Shown: positions 3,857-11,143 of the stretch, piece after piece
Layout: every line of letters begins with the position of its first letter
Position numbering within the stretch: position 1 is the first letter of the stretch
NCBI GenBank assembly: GCA_035546615.1
Contig: DASZWM010000004.1
Span: 1 to 11,143 of the forward strand
DNA from: Minisyncoccota bacterium
GTDB lineage: Bacteria > Patescibacteriota > Minisyncoccia > Phycocordibacterales > SBAW01
Direction of reading: 5' to 3'
Length of the DNA stretch: 11,143 nt
Translations under genes and position numbers: made by a program
The notes under the pieces: generated by a model
Told to the model about the DNA's origin: nothing
What the model saw: only the letters and a program-made list of their open reading frames with translations
The model's database searches: none

Positions 3857-5212
3857 ATGGCAACCGCCTTTCGCCCCCGGACGCTCGTACTTTTCCTGGG
3901 GGACATACTCTTCTTCGCTTTCGCCCTTTGGCTTTCGCTCTATCTGCGCGCCTTCAGCGTCCCGGACCGCGACCTCTTCCTGTCCCACTTGCAGCCCTTC
4001 CTGCTTCTCTTTGCGGCGTGGGCAATCGTCTTCTTCATAGCGGGACTCTATGAGAGCCGCTCCATAATCCTCGCGCGCCGCGCGCTTTCGATGACGCTCC
4101 TGGTGGCGCAGACGTTCAATATAATCCTCGCGGCGCTCTTCTTTTTTGTCCTGCCGCTTTCTATTTTCGGCATTGCCCCCAAGGTCCTGCTTGCCATTTA
4201 TCTCCCGGTTTCTTTTGCGCTGGTGCTGGTGTGGCGCGTTGCTTTGTATCCCTGGCTTGGCTTCCAGAAGCCCGAGCAGGCGATAGCGGTTGGTTCGCGC
4301 CCGGAAGTGGCCGAGCTGGTGCATGCGCTCGACAATGCGCCGAATGCGCCAACCCGCGTGGCGGTGCATCTGGATCCTGCGAGCCCATCCGTCGTCGAGG
4401 ATATCAAGGTCGCTATTGCGCAATACAGGGCGAAGTTCGTCATCGCCGACTTCAACGACCCGCGCGTGGCTGCCGCATTCCCCGATATGTATAACTTCCT
4501 TTCGGTAGGCATCCGTTTCTTCGACGCGATGATGCTGTACGAGGAGGTGTTCGGCCGCATTCCGCTTTCCATCATCGACGAGCGCTGGCTTGCGCGGAAT
4601 GTCTCGCGCTACTCCAAGACCTGGTACGACCCGCTCAAGCGGTTTATGGATATACTCATCGGAGTGGCGGGAGGGATCATCTCGCTAGTGTTCTATCCTT
4701 TTATCATCCTCGCCATTAAGCTTGATGACGGAGGACCTCTATTTGTCTCTTTGCCGCGTATCGGTCAGGGCGGCAAAGTTATTCATATCCACAAATTTCG
4801 CAGCATGACCGGCAATGACGCGGGCGATTATGGAGCGGGTGGAACTACTAAGCTGGCCGTTACGCAGGTAGGCAAGATTCTTCGAAAAACCAGTCTCGAT
4901 GAGATACCGCAATTTTTAAATGTCCTTTTCGGGGAGCTTTCCCTTATCGGGCCTCGTCCGGAATCGCCTTCGCTCGTGGAGTTGTACGGCAAAGAGATAC
5001 CCTATTATCAAGCCCGTCATTTAATAAAGCCGGGCATTTCCGGATGGGCGCAGATCTATCAAGCCAACGATCCGCACCACGGCGCGGAAGTAGAAGCGAC
5101 GCGCGAGAAGCTTTCGTACGACCTCTACTACCTCAAGCACCGCTCGCTCATGCTGGATCTGGTTATCGCGCTCAAGACGGTAAAGAAACTTCTTATACGT
5201 AGCGGGATATAA
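3857..5212 (+). CDS. Polyprenyl-phosphate sugar phosphotransferase (WbaP/CpsE/WcaJ 'bacterial sugar transferase' family), 451 aa
   Basis: An N-terminal multi-TM region is followed by a C-terminal catalytic domain. That domain carries the family hallmarks KRFMDILIG..., [27 protein letters not shown] and [10 protein letters not shown]. Confidence 0.85.
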
Positions 5213-5220
5213 TCAGTCGC

Positions 5221-5943
5221 ATGATAGTAGATGGGAAAAAAATAGCCGAGGAGATTTTGGCTGATATCGGCGATTCTTTGCGCGGGCGTAAGCTCGGCAT
5301 TGTTATGGGCTCTTCCGACCCTGCGACGGAGTCTTTCATACGTATCAAATCGAAAGTGGCCGCGCGCCTTGGCGTGAAAGTCGTACACGGCGAATTTTCG
5401 AAACTCCTTACATCCTGCGACGGCATTATCGTGCAGCTGCCAATAGCAAACTCCGACGAATTGCTCGCTCAGCTTCCGGCTGACAAAGATGTCGACGCGC
5501 TCGGGCACGCGCCGAGCGTATTGCCCCCCGTGGCCGGAGCCGTTGCCGAAGTGCTCATGCGCCAGGGCGTGGACGTTGTGGGTAAAAAGATCGTCGTAGT
5601 GGGCGCCGGCAGGCTGGTCGGAAGACCGGCAGCTGAAATGCTCAAAGAAATGGGCGGGGAAGTCACAGTCGTTACGACAAACAGCGGCTCGCTTGAAGAA
5701 CTTAAGACTGCCGATGTTGTAGTGCTTGGGGCGGGGGATCCGGGCTTTATAAAGCCGGAGATGCTCAAGCAGGGAGTCGTTCTTATAGATGCAGGCACCA
5801 GCGAGTCGTCCGGCAAGCTCGCGGGCGATGCTGATCCTGCATGCGCTGATATCGCTTCTATATTTACACCTGTCCCAGGCGGTATAGGACCCATCGCCGT
5901 CGCGATGATATTCAAAAATCTGCTTGCCTTAGTGCAGAAGTAG
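5221..5943 (+). CDS. folD: Bifunctional 5,10-methylene-tetrahydrofolate dehydrogenase/cyclohydrolase FolD (compact 240-aa form)
   Basis: MIVDGKKIAEEI matches the FolD N-terminus. The SFIRIKSKV block carries the conserved catalytic Lys. QLP...DKDVDA, the VVGAGRLVGRP Rossmann segment and the C-terminal TPVPGGIGPIAVAMIF are also present. Confidence 0.8.
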   Translation: MIVDGKKIAEEILADIGDSLRGRKLGIVMGSSDPATESFIRIKSKVAARLGVKVVHGEFSKLLTSCDGIIVQLPIANSDELLAQLPADKDVDALGHAPSVLPPVAGAVAEVLMRQGVDVVGKKIVVVGAGRLVGRPAAEMLKEMGGEVTVVTTNSGSLEELKTADVVVLGAGDPGFIKPEMLKQGVVLIDAGTSESSGKLAGDADPACADIASIFTPVPGGIGPIAVAMIFKNLLALVQK

Positions 5944-5950
5944 AAGGTTA

Positions 5951-5980
5951 AATTCTGGACTTCGTAAGTCCAGAATTTTT
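5951..5980 (+). terminator. Rho-independent terminator after folD
   Basis: Perfect 12-bp stem, AATTCTGGACTT (5951-5962) pairing with AAGTCCAGAATT (5966-5977), with a 3-nt loop and running into TTTTT (5976-5980). The stop codon is at 5941-5943. Confidence 0.7.
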
Positions 5981-6026
5981 CCCGTGAAGCGTTGTTAAAA
6001 GGGCTTTTCTCTGCTATTCTCACCGC

Positions 6027-6092
6027 TATAATCTAGCGAAGCGAGCCAAATGAGAGTCCCTTTCATTTGGTCGCGAGCGACGATTATATAAT
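6027..6092 (+). promoter_or_regulatory. secDF upstream region: two consensus TATAAT hexamers (6027-6032 and 6087-6092) flanking a bulged 12-bp hairpin (6041-6074)
   Basis: TATAAT 6087-6092 lies 10 nt before ATG 6103 with no SD between, consistent with a leaderless or short-leader mRNA. TATAAT 6027-6032 would start a transcript roughly at the base of the hairpin: GCGA(G)CCAAATGA, a 9-nt loop, then TCATTTGGTCGC. No convincing -35 for either. Confidence 0.3.
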
Positions 6093-6102
6093 CTTAAATT
6101 CT

Positions 6103-7449
6103 ATGTTTGCTTTGCGCTATAGCGCCGTGGTCATCCTTATTATCGCGGGGGCATTGGGCTACTTCGTGTGGCACACCACCGGCGGGGGCGGCCGGTTCGA
6201 CTTCAAGCTGGGGCTCGACCTCTCCGGGGGTACCCACCTGGTCTACTCTGCCGACACCAGCACTATTGCGGCCGCGGATATTCCTGATGCTCTCATTGCG
6301 CTTCGCGAGGTTGTTGAGCGCCGCGTTAACGCCTTTGGCGTCGGCGAACCGGTCGTCCAGACCGAGCAGGGAGGCGCACTCGGAAGCGGCGAACACCGCC
6401 TGGTGGTGGAGCTCCCTGGCATAACTGATGTCGATGCCGCAGTGAAGATGATAGGCGCCACGCCGCTTCTTGAATTCAAGCTCGTGAAGGACGGATTTGC
6501 GGACAACCTCACGATTACTTCGACTACGTCGCCGGAGCAGACCATACCGAACCCTGCCGCGTTTACCGACACCGGCCTGACGGGCAAGTACCTTTCGCGC
6601 GCAACGCTCGAGTTCAACAAAGGAACCGGCAGCGTGGGGCTGACCCAGCCGGTCGTGCGCGTGGACTTTAACTCCGAGGGCACGAAGCTCTTCGGCGATA
6701 TCACGAGCGCCAATGTCGGCAAGCAGATAGCGATATTCCTCGACGGCACGATGGTGTCGGCGCCTACGGTTCAGGAAAAGATAACCGACGGCACAGCGAT
6801 AATTTCCGGCAACTTCTCCGCCGACTCCGCCAAGGAGCTCGTGCGCAACCTTAACTTGGGCGCCCTTCCGGTACCCATTACGCTTGCAAGTACGCAGTCT
6901 ATCGGCGCTATCCTCGGCGACGAGGCCGTACATGCGGGAATTCTCGCGGGCGTAGTCGGTTTCGTGGCGCTGTCGCTCTTCATGCTCTTCTGGTACCGCG
7001 TGCCGGGATTCGTTGCGGTCGTCTCGCTAACCATTTACGTCATCCTGATGCTGGTGCTCTTTAAGCTCATTCCGGTCGTGCTGACCGCCGCCGGCATCGC
7101 GGGCTTCATACTGTCCGTCGGCCTTGCCGTGGACGCCAACGTGCTTATTGCCGAGCGCATCAAGGAGGAGCTTGCCGCGGGCAAGAAGCTCGACCACGCC
7201 ATCCGCGAGGGCTTCGCGCGCGCCTGGCTCGCCATCCGCGACTCCAACATCGCGCACATCATCGCAGGCGTCATCCTGTTCTGGTTCGGCACGGCGCTCA
7301 TCAAGGGCTTCGCGCTGGTGTTCGGGCTCGGCGTCGTCGTGTCCATGTTCTCGGCTATCACCATCTCCCGCACGTTCCTGCTGGCGCTCGGCATCAATAC
7401 CGACAAGAAACTCGGCCACTTCCTGATGCGCTCCGGCCTTCGCAAGTAA
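6103..7449 (+). CDS. secD: Protein translocase subunit SecD (448 aa)
   Basis: N-terminal TM anchor, then GLDLSGGTHLVY. The large periplasmic domain is followed by a C-terminal 6-TM bundle (...IAERIKEELAAGKKLDHAIREGFARAWLAIRDSNIAHIIAGVILFWFG...). The start was chosen at ATG 6103; an in-frame TTG at 6067 would add 12 aa. Confidence 0.9.
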   Translation: MFALRYSAVVILIIAGALGYFVWHTTGGGGRFDFKLGLDLSGGTHLVYSADTSTIAAADIPDALIALREVVERRVNAFGVGEPVVQTEQGGALGSGEHRLVVELPGITDVDAAVKMIGATPLLEFKLVKDGFADNLTITSTTSPEQTIPNPAAFTDTGLTGKYLSRATLEFNKGTGSVGLTQPVVRVDFNSEGTKLFGDITSANVGKQIAIFLDGTMVSAPTVQEKITDGTAIISGNFSADSAKELVRNLNLGALPVPITLASTQSIGAILGDEAVHAGILAGVVGFVALSLFMLFWYRVPGFVAVVSLTIYVILMLVLFKLIPVVLTAAGIAGFILSVGLAVDANVLIAERIKEELAAGKKLDHAIREGFARAWLAIRDSNIAHIIAGVILFWFGTALIKGFALVFGLGVVVSMFSAITISRTFLLALGINTDKKLGHFLMRSGLRK

Positions 7450-7465
7450 CTTGAGATCTGATTTT

Positions 7466-8365
7466 ATGAACATCGCAAAATACGAAAAATATTTCTTCAT
7501 CCTTCCGGCAGTTCTGTCGCTTCTGGCCGTTATCGCGCTCGGCATGTGGGGGCTCAAGCCCGGCATTGATTTGGCCGGCGGCTCGCTGCTTCAGGTGACC
7601 TACGCGGCAGAGCGCCCTACGAGCGAAGCCGTGCACGCGGCGGTAGACGGCTTGGGCATTGGAGAAGTGCACGTACAGCCTACGGGCACCAATGGCTACA
7701 TCCTCCGCCAGCGCGACTTGACCCAAGACGAGAAGAATACGCTTGAGAACGCGCTCAAGAACCTCGGCGCCAACAAGGAAGACCAGTTCACCTCTATAGG
7801 CCCGTCGCTGGGCTCCGAGCTGGTACGCAAGGCATGGATAGCGATCACGCTTGTGGTGCTGTGCATCATCGCGTTCATCGCGTTCGCGTTCCGCGGCGTC
7901 TCCAAGCCCGTCGCGTCCTGGAAGTACGGCATCGTGGCGATCATTACGCTGCTTCACGACATCCTTATTCCGTTGGGCCTCTTTGCGGCTCTCGGTCACT
8001 TTATGGGGGCGGAGGTGGACGCGCTCTTTATCGTGGCGCTCCTGACCATCTTGGGTATTTCCATCAACGACACTATCGTGGTCTTTGACCGCATCCGCGA
8101 GAACCTGCGCCTTAACGAAGAGCGCCACAAGCGCGAGGCGTTCGACGAGGTCGTGGGCCGCTCTATCATGCAGACCCTAGCGCGCTCCATTAACACTAGC
8201 CTCACCGTCGTCATTACGCTCGCGGCACTGTACTTCCTCGGCCCGGCGTCGACGAAAATGTTCGCACTCACCCTTATCGTCGGTATGATAGCGGGAACCT
8301 ACTCTTCGATATTCCTCGCGTCCCCGCTGTTGGTAGTCTGGGAGCGTTTTCAGAAAAAGGGTTAA
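7466..8365 (+). CDS. secF: Protein translocase subunit SecF (299 aa)
   Basis: Sits immediately downstream of secD. Signature blocks GIDLAGGSLLQV, ...INDTIVVFDRIRENL... and a C-terminal TM bundle. The start was chosen at ATG 7466; a TTG at 7451 is an alternative. Confidence 0.9.
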   Translation: MNIAKYEKYFFILPAVLSLLAVIALGMWGLKPGIDLAGGSLLQVTYAAERPTSEAVHAAVDGLGIGEVHVQPTGTNGYILRQRDLTQDEKNTLENALKNLGANKEDQFTSIGPSLGSELVRKAWIAITLVVLCIIAFIAFAFRGVSKPVASWKYGIVAIITLLHDILIPLGLFAALGHFMGAEVDALFIVALLTILGISINDTIVVFDRIRENLRLNEERHKREAFDEVVGRSIMQTLARSINTSLTVVITLAALYFLGPASTKMFALTLIVGMIAGTYSSIFLASPLLVVWERFQKKG

Positions 8366-8374
8366 TATAAAGGC

Positions 8375-8785
8375 ATGAAGACCGTCCTTATCGCTATCGC
8401 TGTTGTCGTAGTAGGGGGCGCGGCATGGTGGTTCCTGGCCAAGGAAACCGCTTCCGCACCGACGGTTGCTCGCGCGCCCGAAGTCTCTTGGCAGTATGCT
8501 GATAAGGGCGGAGATGAAACCGGCACGCCGCAGACCGAAGTGAGCGTTACGATCTCGGGCAAGACGAGCCTGGTCGGCACCTACCAGGGCAGATGTGCCA
8601 GTGTTTCGACCTTGGCCGATGGGGAAGTCTCAGGCACCTTGTGCTGGTGGGCGGGCGGCGGCAAGGAACTCGGCGTATTTAACGAGAACGGAAAGTGGGT
8701 GGTCAAAGAAGGCGACCAGGACGAGGGAAGCGGCGATGAGCCCGGCTTCCGCGGCAATTTCAAAACGCTTTTTGAGATCAAATAA
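8375..8785 (+). CDS. Hypothetical small protein (136 aa) with an N-terminal signal-anchor TM helix and a Gly/acidic-rich soluble domain holding 2 Cys
   Basis: ORF starting 10 nt after the secF stop, with a weak AAAGG upstream. Its stop overlaps the start of the next gene (TAATG), indicating translational coupling. No family recognised. Confidence 0.55.
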   Translation: MKTVLIAIAVVVVGGAAWWFLAKETASAPTVARAPEVSWQYADKGGDETGTPQTEVSVTISGKTSLVGTYQGRCASVSTLADGEVSGTLCWWAGGGKELGVFNENGKWVVKEGDQDEGSGDEPGFRGNFKTLFEIK

Positions 8786-9333
8786 TGATAATCGGGATTA
8801 CGGGTTCTTTTGGGGCGGGGAAGGGAGTTGTTGTTGACTATCTCAGCAAGACCAGGGGATTTAAGCACTACTCCGCAAGCGGTTTTATAAAAGAAGAGAT
8901 CGTACGTCGCGGTCTGCCTGTGGATCGCGACTCCATGATACTTATTGGTAATGCCATACGTGCGGAATATGGCCCAGCCTACATCATTGAGACGTTATAC
9001 AAGCGCGCAGAAGAAGCTGGCGGAGACGCGGTCATTGAGGCGTTGCGCGCGGTTGCGGAAGCAAAAAAGATCAAAGAGCTTGGTGGACTGGTTATCGGAG
9101 TAGATGCGGATTCCAAATTGCGCTATGAACGCGCTTTCGCGCGCAAAAGCGAAAAAGATAATGTTCCGTATGACAAGTGGCTTGAGCAGGAAAGAATAGA
9201 AAATAATGCCACTGACCCGACGAGGCAGAATATCTCCGGTGCCTTGAAAGAATCCGACGTAATCGTAACCAACAACGGCACGCCGGAGGAGCTTTTTGCC
9301 CAGGTAGAGGAGGCTTTGCAGAAAATCAAATAA
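8785..9333 (+). CDS. P-loop nucleotide/nucleoside kinase, NMP-kinase / dephospho-CoA-kinase-like fold (182 aa)
   Basis: N-terminal Walker A GITGSFGAGKG. An H-Y-S-A-S-G segment resembles the adenylate/cytidylate kinase HxS(T)GD block. RYERAFAR is lid-like. The C-terminal DVIVTNNGTPEELFAQVEE closely resembles the CoaE C-terminus (DDVIDNNG...). The exact substrate cannot be assigned. Confidence 0.6.
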   Translation: MIIGITGSFGAGKGVVVDYLSKTRGFKHYSASGFIKEEIVRRGLPVDRDSMILIGNAIRAEYGPAYIIETLYKRAEEAGGDAVIEALRAVAEAKKIKELGGLVIGVDADSKLRYERAFARKSEKDNVPYDKWLEQERIENNATDPTRQNISGALKESDVIVTNNGTPEELFAQVEEALQKIK

Positions 9334-9930
9334 ATGGACTGGCATCAGGTTACAGCTTTGATAACGGGCGTTTTGACCCTTGCTGCGGTGGTGCCATACG
9401 TGCGCGATATGCTTCGCGGAACGACGCGGCCCAACCTGGTTACCTGGGGGCTTTGGCTTATTATCCAGACTATTTTTATTTTGGCGCAGTTTAGCGCCGG
9501 CGCCTCGTGGTCGGTACTGCTGCCGCTTATGGAAATGCTCACGGTCGGAATCGTGTTCGTCCTCGGCTTGTTCGGCTATGGGTATAAAAAGTATCGCAAG
9601 CTCGATATTACATGCCTTGGCATCGCGCTTGCGGCCATCGCCCTTTGGCAGCTTACAAGCGAACCACTCGTGGCGCTTTTCATGGCCCTGGGGGCGGACC
9701 TAGTTGCCGGAATCCCTACTCTCAAAAAGGCATATCTCGACCCGATGTCCGAAACGCCGTCAGCTTATTTTCTGGTGTTTATTTCGGCTATTTTCGGAGG
9801 GCTTTCCAGCGCGATTATCGACCTTCCTAACCTCATGTGGCCGGTCTATATCTGCGCTTTCAACGGAGGGGTTTTGGCCCTTATTTTGCTTGGCCGGAGG
9901 GCTCAAAAAGGCCATATTTCCAGGGCTTGA
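9334..9930 (+). CDS. Polytopic membrane protein (198 aa, ~7 TM) with an internal 3+1+3 repeat; PQ-loop / SWEET / Pnu-like topology (hypothetical transporter)
   Basis: ATG lies 1 nt after the kinase stop. Seven hydrophobic segments. The two halves align: AAVVPYVRDMLRGTTRPNLVTWGLWLII with VAGIPTLKKAYLDPMSETPSAYFLVFIS, giving a repeated P-x-x-[RK]-x-x-L-x-x-x-[ST] after the first helix of each repeat. The family assignment is inference. Confidence 0.55.
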   Translation: MDWHQVTALITGVLTLAAVVPYVRDMLRGTTRPNLVTWGLWLIIQTIFILAQFSAGASWSVLLPLMEMLTVGIVFVLGLFGYGYKKYRKLDITCLGIALAAIALWQLTSEPLVALFMALGADLVAGIPTLKKAYLDPMSETPSAYFLVFISAIFGGLSSAIIDLPNLMWPVYICAFNGGVLALILLGRRAQKGHISRA

Positions 9931-9954
9931 CTCCCTAGGGCAGGGGTATATACT
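9927..9954 (+). promoter_or_regulatory. Sigma70-type promoter candidate for the 16S rRNA gene (TTGACT-N16-TATACT)
   Basis: -35 TTGACT 9927-9932 overlaps the TGA stop of the upstream CDS. -10 TATACT is at 9949-9954 with a 16-nt spacer. The predicted start is ~330 nt upstream of the mature 16S 5' end, a normal rRNA leader length. Confidence 0.5.
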
Positions 9955-10051
9955 CTCTATATCACTGCCTTTCGGCGGTTTTTCTTTCGCCTAAACAGCA
10001 ACAAGGAAAGCCCCTCGAGCTATGGGCAGGGGATCCTTGAAAATTGAATAA

Positions 10052-10063: not shown

Positions 10064-10290
10064 GTAATTGAACGTTAGAGGAGGATCACACCGATCTTCT
10101 GCATCTGAGTACAAGGATGCAGGAGGTCAGCAAGCAAAAGAAGTCCTTCCAATATAATTCCACTGGGAGGCAAACAAGGGAGAAGCCCTGTCCTTATTTA
10201 ATTGAAAAATTGAACTGGATAGAAATATTTTTTCTCTTGTTCCGTTCATCGAGTCAAAGGAACGAATGTAAAAGTTCGTCTCTTATAATT

Positions 10291-11143
<853 letters not shown>

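Follow-up and report, generated by a model that had tools for sequence, protein, structure and literature searches.

The PQ-loop/LCT family (PF04193; TC 2.A.43), which includes cystinosin, PQLC2/LAAT-1 and Ypq1-3, consists of proteins with seven transmembrane (TM) helices arranged as two sets of three around a single helix (3+1+3), with the N-terminus outside and the C-terminus inside. PQLC2 and Ypq are PQ-loop carriers of basic amino acids (PMC4649669), cystinosin uses a lysine in TM5, an aspartate in TM6 and its second PQ proline (PMC9385667), and TCDB places the LCT family in both bacteria and eukaryotes (PMC7176098). Seven-TM proteins of the SWEET type are also known in bacteria, where they are a minority beside the three-TM SemiSWEETs (PMC5742349, PMC5972207), and the 3+1+3 architecture is found in PnuC as well (PMC7176098). 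Here we describe a 198-aa membrane protein whose predicted structure resembles these systems, encoded at positions 9334-9930 of the forward strand of contig DASZWM010000004.1 (assembly GCA_035546615.1) from a Minisyncoccota bacterium. The window analyzed is the whole 11,143-bp contig.

Genome-reduced bacteria of the candidate phyla radiation (CPR/Patescibacteria) synthesize few metabolites themselves, and annotation is lacking for many of their membrane proteins. Like the PQ-loop proteins, the window protein is predicted to have seven TM helices in the 3+1+3 arrangement, N-out/C-in, with TM1 and TM5 each bearing a proline close to the cytoplasmic end and followed by a conserved loop. The overall best explanation, to which we give a probability of about 0.5, is that it is a small 3+1+3 secondary transporter whose likeliest cargo would be a cationic amine or basic amino acid feeding polyamine synthesis.

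A large family of unannotated seven-helix proteins

The open reading frame (ORF) is complete, and its ATG follows the TAA stop of the upstream kinase gene immediately, with no spacer. A word-indexed search returned 225 homologues of 190-207 aa, all annotated as hypothetical and none with a precomputed Pfam domain. At E<=1e-3, a family profile built from an alignment of 61 members reached 5,623 cluster representatives (50% identity), 909 of them at E<=1e-30. Named sources of the family are Paceibacterota, Adler-, Wolfe- and Liptonbacteria, metagenome-assembled genomes (MAGs) labeled as Saccharibacteria, and the cyanobacterium Chamaesiphon; from SARP/BTAD, TadE and LuxR neighbors we infer that some high-GC contigs with family members are actinobacterial. 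Searches of Pfam, NCBIfam and PDB sequences, whether the query was the protein itself or the 61-sequence profile, gave nothing relevant, the sole match being to YfhO (E 4.9).

Conservation across the 61 homologues is strong. Five columns are invariant (Y22, T31, G56, G83 and K132) and about 20 further columns are kept in at least 90% of the sequences, a level reached by P21, P33, P137, S139 and E140. D122 is kept in 58/61 and K132 in 61/61, while W41, Q52, W105 and Y172 are each kept in at least 57 of the 61. Because the family is large and its columns are conserved, we conclude that the ORF is a genuine gene. That it might instead be a spurious hydrophobic ORF has in its favor only that the ORF is unannotated and lacks Pfam and NCBIfam matches; against this stand thousands of same-length homologues with invariant residues, a confident structural model and tight operon-like packing, and the conservation rules the idea out, leaving it a negligible chance.

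AlphaFold2 (AF2), run on the 61-sequence alignment, predicted seven helices with a predicted local distance difference test score (pLDDT) of 90.9 and a predicted TM-score (pTM) of 0.85. P21 and P128 each lie 7 residues ahead of the end of their helix (helices 1 and 5, respectively), and the loops after these two helices are 6 residues each. The mean number of lysines plus arginines (K+R) by segment over the 61 sequences was 0.02, 2.75, 0.02, 1.82, 0.26, 2.20, 0.28 and 4.30. Because these counts alternate between segments, they fit an N-out/C-in seven-TM protein by the positive-inside rule. The elements of the gene are as follows, with helix limits from AF2:

9334-9930, forward strand: complete membrane-protein ORF of 198 aa, a seven-TM protein of an unannotated family
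9340-9417, forward strand: TM1, residues 3-28, predicted first helix of repeat 1, carrying P21-Y22
9394-9435, forward strand: loop motif 1, PYVRDMLRGTTRPN, residues 21-34, predicted cytoplasmic side; Y22 and T31 invariant, P21 and P33 at least 90%
9436-9495, forward strand: predicted TM2, residues 35-54; W41 and Q52 near-invariant
9499-9513, forward strand: GASWS motif, residues 56-60, in the short outer TM2-TM3 loop; G56 invariant
9508-9579, forward strand: TM3, residues 59-82, predicted last helix of repeat 1
9598-9654, forward strand: TM4, residues 89-107, predicted single linker helix between the bundles; D91 and W105 conserved
9664-9738, forward strand: TM5, residues 111-135, predicted first helix of repeat 2, with D122, P128 and invariant K132
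9697-9699, forward strand: predicted membrane-embedded D122 in TM5, kept in 58/61
9715-9756, forward strand: loop motif 2, PTLKKAYLDPMSET, residues 128-141, predicted cytoplasmic side; K132 invariant, P137, S139 and E140 at least 90%
9757-9804, forward strand: predicted TM6, residues 142-157
9823-9924, forward strand: predicted TM7 and basic C-terminal tail, residues 164-197; P170, Y172 and N177 conserved

A preliminary description of this ORF, made from the sequence alone, agrees with much of this picture. The peptides that it quoted are encoded exactly, including the middle single helix LDITCLGIALAAIALWQLT. The seven hydrophobic segments that it grouped as 3+1+3 correspond to the seven AF2 helices and to the K+R alternation, giving a predicted seven-TM topology in which TM4 is the one linker helix between the repeats, and the motifs that it noted after the first helix of each repeat are both present and strongly conserved across the homologues.

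Four longer distant homologues (P0148, P0185, P0249 and P0254) carry C-terminal extensions, glyoxalase/VOC in two and bacterial SH3/SH3b in two. These extensions may be real fusions or gene-calling artefacts, and they give no clear functional clue.

Predicted fold and the internal repeat

The five best PDB structural matches of the AF2 model were all 3+1+3 members of the MtN3/PQ-loop clan, and the top Foldseek ranks went to the KDEL receptor (KDELR) and cystinosin, with TM-scores of about 0.6. The C-half modeled alone (residues 106-198) gave three helices at pLDDT 89.9 and matched SWEET13, SemiSWEETs and the mitochondrial pyruvate carrier; in this prediction the C-half is a SemiSWEET-like triple-helix bundle. 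For the N-half, we compared profiles with an alignment of 26 SemiSWEETs, each with both PF04193 and PF03083. The N-half profile scored 19.2 (P 0.0055) over TM1 and loop 1, aligning loop motif 1 on the SemiSWEET LPQ...T motif with V-P-Y on L-P-Q and TTR on T.QTR, and none of 60 shuffles reached this score (null mean 10.8, standard deviation 1.9), the hhalign probability being only 7-9% (P 0.004-0.006). The C-half profile was not significant against the same alignment (13.7, reached by 7 of 60 shuffles); its alignment still pairs P128 with the PQ proline, and a relaxed hhalign alignment matches N177 to the Asn of SemiSWEET that binds sugar. As judged from predicted structure, both halves would be SemiSWEET-like bundles, the N-half because of its weak sequence similarity and the full-length fit, and the C-half because of its own model and the full-length fit. 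The fold is thus very probably the seven-TM 3+1+3 fold of the MtN3/PQ-loop clan (Pfam clan CL0141; TOG-type), and the protein is probably a transporter, a small secondary carrier.

The preliminary description had argued for a transporter fold from an internal duplication, in which TM1-3 and TM5-7 were said to align residue by residue. This alignment is no better than chance. Smith-Waterman comparison of N-half with C-half gave a mean z of 0.85 over the 61 members, and in the window protein the best local alignment of the two halves lies outside the proposed register. The profile-based self-similarity check, set beforehand as the refuting one, gave the same answer: hhalign of the half profiles recovers the proposed register at a score of 10.7 (P 0.24), compared to a column-shuffled mean of 10.55 (standard deviation 2.2), with 18 of 40 shuffles scoring as high. 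At the offset of 107 residues, what the two loops have in common is limited to the Pro (58/61 vs 43/61), aliphatic residues at +2, L/Y at +6 and basic residues at +7, and each loop has its own conserved set (PYVRD.L.GTTRPN vs PT..K.YrDP.SET). A repeat at the sequence level was rejected, since neither pairwise alignment nor profile comparison rose above chance, and the sequence argument drawn from it fails. The duplication appears mainly in the predicted structure, with weak sequence support in the N-half only. The statement that this is a genuine small 3+1+3 transporter-fold protein survives on other evidence, namely the large conserved family, the confident AF2 model, the clan matches in PDB, the predicted SemiSWEET-like C-half and the fit of the N-half profile to SemiSWEET.

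Relation to named families

The two loop motifs had also been placed where PQ-loop/MtN3 proteins carry their signatures. This reading survives, with PY of the N-half falling on the SemiSWEET PQ above the null, and does not extend to membership in PF04193 or PF03083. PF04193 (PQ-loop) was unmatched by the window protein at E<=10 and was outside the 25 most-matched families of the 61 members; PF03083 (MtN3_slv) had no match from the window protein or in the 61-member scan. In place of the Gln of the "PQ", repeat 1 has Tyr in 61/61 sequences and repeat 2 has Thr (43) or Met (18), so that the paired Pro-Gln dipeptides of PQ-loop proteins are lacking, with Pro present in 58/61 and 43/61. In sequences of the high-GC clade, the second Pro has moved by three residues. 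With regard to the Trp (TM2/TM6) and Asn (TM3/TM7) pairs that line the sugar site of SWEETs, W41 (TM2) and N177 (TM7) are candidate counterparts and are conserved, and no conserved Asn was seen in TM3 and no conserved Trp in TM6.

Compared to the PQ-loop/LCT proteins, the window protein shares with cystinosin a conserved Lys and Asp within the second repeat; it differs from the family in lacking the PF04193 match and the PQ Gln, and in being bacterial, merely 198 aa long and without a luminal domain. SWEETs and SemiSWEETs (PF03083; TC 2.A.123) resemble it in size, 198 aa compared to a family average of about 209 aa, and in the N-half alignment of PY on PQ over SemiSWEET TM1 and its loop. In contrast to them, the window protein has a predicted buried Asp122 and an invariant Lys132, no PF03083 match, a C-half without significant sequence similarity and no sugar-metabolism neighbors. 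The likeness to the KDEL receptor is one of fold alone: the receptor serves eukaryotic trafficking between the endoplasmic reticulum and the Golgi and is no carrier, and neither the window protein nor the 61 members gave a hidden Markov model (HMM) or PDB sequence match to PF00810. With PnuC (TC 4.B.1) the parallel is a 3+1+3 bacterial carrier working with a kinase, NadR, much as translational coupling links the window gene to a P-loop kinase gene. PF04973 (PnuC) had no HMM match from the window protein or the 61 members, Foldseek comparison with PnuC was poor (TM-score 0.25-0.27), and a PnuC-like identity was rejected on these fold scores. We place the protein in the clan fold, outside the PQ-loop and SWEET families, where it founds a large, unnamed bacterial family.

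Gene neighborhoods and candidate cargo

In the window, the transporter gene is the last of a tightly packed same-strand array, and a 16S rRNA gene begins about 350 nt 3' of it. The array reads:

5221-5943, forward strand: FolD
6067-7449, forward strand: SecD
7451-8365, forward strand: SecF
8375-8785, forward strand: orphan ORF of 136 aa with an N-terminal hydrophobic segment; its stop overlaps the kinase start by 1 nt
8785-9333, forward strand: P-loop kinase-like gene of 182 aa, UPF0200/AdkA-like, with a weak, below-cutoff NCBIfam match to PRK08356

The 136-aa ORF matched nothing in Pfam or NCBIfam and lacked a counterpart in the related loci examined. The kinase-like protein is labeled "AAA family ATPase" by NCBI and "dephospho-CoA kinase" by JGI. 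Its family gave 890 hits and is highly conserved across Paceibacteria, the 120th hit still having about 64% identity. Because this family is far more widespread and conserved than the transporter, the kinase looks like a housekeeping gene of the SecDF array; it is also possible that it is the functional partner of the transporter.

We inspected 37 loci (L001-L037), several of which are redundant copies of one locus; neighbor statistics are thin, the narrower-alignment locus scans giving just 9 and 11 loci. Within the clade of the window (43-73% identity), the order SecD-SecF-kinase-X-gene-16S is kept and slot X is variable. It is empty in the window and in L006, holds a second kinase paralogue in L010 and L026, and holds a NUDIX gene in L008. 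In L001/2, L009, L021, L022, L023, L025 and L028, the slot is occupied by a reverse-strand gene for a 384-aa protein resembling saccharopine/carboxyspermidine dehydrogenases, which in L020 is placed on the other side of the kinase, immediately upstream. The slot of L007 and L019, which have the same sequence, is occupied by a genuine homospermidine synthase (HSS), with E 6e-139 to solved HSS structures. Beyond the clade of the window, an AdoMet_dc homologue adjoins the gene in another CPR genome (L003/4) and overlaps its start on a 2-Mb high-GC contig (L005); one is also found 3.6 kb from the gene in L026. In L009 the dehydrogenase-like gene is broken into two ORFs, at 4803-5342 and 5358-5993, and may be a pseudogene or the product of misassembly.

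SpeD homologues from CPR and many further phyla are often pyruvoyl-dependent ornithine or arginine decarboxylases, and they cluster with hss or casdh/casdc in genomes without canonical arginine decarboxylase (ADC) and ornithine decarboxylase (ODC) (Li et al., PMC10407285). Because three different polyamine-pathway enzymes adjoin the gene in separate lineages, a cationic precursor is the best available guess for the cargo. Judging from neighbors, we tentatively propose a cationic amine or basic amino acid tied to polyamine synthesis (ornithine/arginine, or putrescine), a proposal that is rather less secure than the fold. The basic amino acids or amines so proposed match the cargo class of PQLC2/Ypq, and the guess also fits the predicted buried Asp122, the invariant Lys132, the conserved aromatics and the Lys/Asp/proline set of cystinosin. 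A more specific version, that the protein is the founding member of a bacterial PQ-loop/SWEET-fold carrier family supplying the polyamine pathway (SpeD-type decarboxylase and HSS/CASDH) in CPR, is more doubtful still.

Several observations weigh against a 3+1+3 carrier linked to polyamines. Membership in any clan family at the sequence level is absent. The window itself has no polyamine gene, its neighbor being the P-loop kinase, and most of the polyamine adjacencies come from one Adlerbacteria-like clade and may reflect inherited synteny rather than function. The 384-aa dehydrogenase scores far below the carboxynorspermidine synthase cutoff (45 vs 800 bits). Other relatives have other neighbors: a class I S-adenosylmethionine (SAM) methyltransferase in the high-GC clade (L030-32, L034 and L005); an ArnC/PgfS-like GT2 with PMT_2 in L018; a shikimate-kinase-like kinase, PyrF and a phosphoribosyltransferase in L016; MurC and peptidases elsewhere; and, in L013 (a Chamaesiphon sp. 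MAG), a 327-aa protein in a tandemly duplicated pair. The neighbors in L011, L012, L014, L015, L017, L035 and L037 are uninformative as to cargo. The L013 pair is a tandem two-gene cassette at 4921-8925, the 327-aa protein followed by the transporter homologue, and the two 327-aa copies are 77% identical. Neither this partner nor the 275-aa partner in L003 had relatives in Pfam, NCBIfam or PDB.

The kinase next door invites a different reading, in which the protein imports a nucleoside, vitamin or cofactor precursor that the adjacent P-loop kinase traps by phosphorylation, as PnuC does with NadR. The kinase stop abuts or overlaps the transporter start in the window, L006, L010 and L026, tandem kinase paralogues occur in L007, L010 and L026, NUDIX genes are near in L008, L001 and L035, and PnuC has the same 3+1+3 architecture (PMC7176098). 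A homologue of 38% identity in L016 has, 4 nt beyond its end, the gene for an unrelated shikimate/homoserine-kinase-like P-loop kinase, and after it PyrF and the phosphoribosyltransferase. However, the L016 kinase is not detectably homologous to that of the window and was rejected as a conserved partner on this ground, many loci have the reverse-strand dehydrogenase gene between kinase and transporter, and L015 has no kinase. Since the kinase family is so widespread and looks housekeeping, we keep PnuC/NadR-style trapping as a rival rather than the lead, and consider it unlikely. The methyltransferase genes could point elsewhere, to a carrier of SAM or a related sulfonium or adenosyl metabolite (SAM, decarboxylated SAM, methylthioadenosine or S-adenosylhomocysteine). 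They lie directly upstream with a 4-nt overlap in L030-32 and within 22 nt in L034, L005 adds an AdoMet_dc gene and a second methyltransferase-fold gene to its own, and AdoMet_dc neighbors occur in CPR; yet the methyltransferases are generic, without an equivalog, the link is absent from the clade of the window, and CPR AdoMet_dc homologues are often amino-acid rather than SAM decarboxylases (PMC10407285), so that we regard such a cargo as improbable.

A sugar uniporter, the equivalent of a fused SemiSWEET, is about equally improbable. W41 of TM2 and N177 of TM7 are reminiscent of the Trp/Asn sugar site, and bacterial seven-TM SWEETs are known (PMC5742349, PMC5972207), but the Trp/Asn pair appears to be present at just one position per repeat, the conserved buried Asp and invariant Lys are foreign to SWEETs, the 61-member scan gave no PF03083 match, and no sugar-metabolism neighbors were seen in at least 20 contexts. 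A flippase for a polyprenyl-phosphate-linked sugar, with a role like that of GtrA/ArnEF, would account for L018, where the gene overlaps the end of a PgfS/ArnC-like polyprenyl-phosphate glycosyltransferase gene and lies between two PMT_2 (GT-C) genes; translocases of lipid-linked sugars are reported as members of the TOG superfamily (PMC7176098), and the window carries the envelope genes RodA/FtsW, GT4 and Bac_transf. This context is found in one locus only, though, the envelope genes of the window are more than 4 kb distant, and the conserved polar or charged cavity-type residues and cytoplasmic loops look like those of solute carriers, which makes a flippase the least probable of these cargo readings.

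Proposed mechanism

If the protein is a 3+1+3 carrier, two triple-helix bundles, TM1-3 and TM5-7, joined by TM4 as inversion linker, would enclose a central cavity. The analogy with SemiSWEET, SWEET and cystinosin suggests that the bundles would rock about P21 in TM1 and P128 in TM5, so that the cavity faces each side of the membrane in turn. The conserved cytoplasmic loops after TM1 and TM5 would form the inner gate, and a putative binding or proton-coupling site would comprise Asp122 along with conserved side chains of Trp, Tyr, Gln and Asn.

Other features of the contig

The window holds the 3' end of a 23S rRNA gene (1-191), a 5S gene (732-845) and the 5' part of a 16S gene (10284-11143), all on the forward strand. 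Since about 9.4 kb of protein genes separate the upstream 23S-5S pair from 16S, either the rRNA genes are not linked or the genome has at least two rRNA loci. The order transporter then 16S recurs in L001, L006, L007 and L010, as judged by a conserved antisense ORF inside 16S. A strong sigma-70-like site (TTGACT-16-TATACT, 10/12) at 9927-9954 overlaps the transporter stop, 5' of 16S, and is followed on its 3' side by a short GC hairpin with a T-run at 9964-9979; the region 9927-9979 may be an rRNA promoter region. Right after the 5S gene is an ORF of 250 aa (916-1668) with an N-terminal membrane anchor and no Pfam or NCBIfam match. At 240 aa, the FolD homologue is short, with THF_DHG_CYH matched over about half its length (profile 2-65 of 115) and a complete NAD(P)-binding domain, and FolD is likewise short in related loci (238-265 aa).

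Implications for the family and for CPR

Should the polyamine link fail, a clean fold assignment for an orphan family is still left. At least 5,600 sequence clusters in the predicted SWEET/PQ-loop fold would be given a concrete mechanism, that of an alternating-access carrier hinged at two prolines, and seven-TM members of the clan would be far commoner in bacteria than the few reported "fused SemiSWEETs". If the link is true, this would be the first polyamine-linked transporter of the PQ-loop/SWEET fold, a prokaryotic functional counterpart of lysosomal PQLC2 and a new transporter class in polyamine biology, and it would show how CPR bacteria obtain ornithine, arginine or putrescine.

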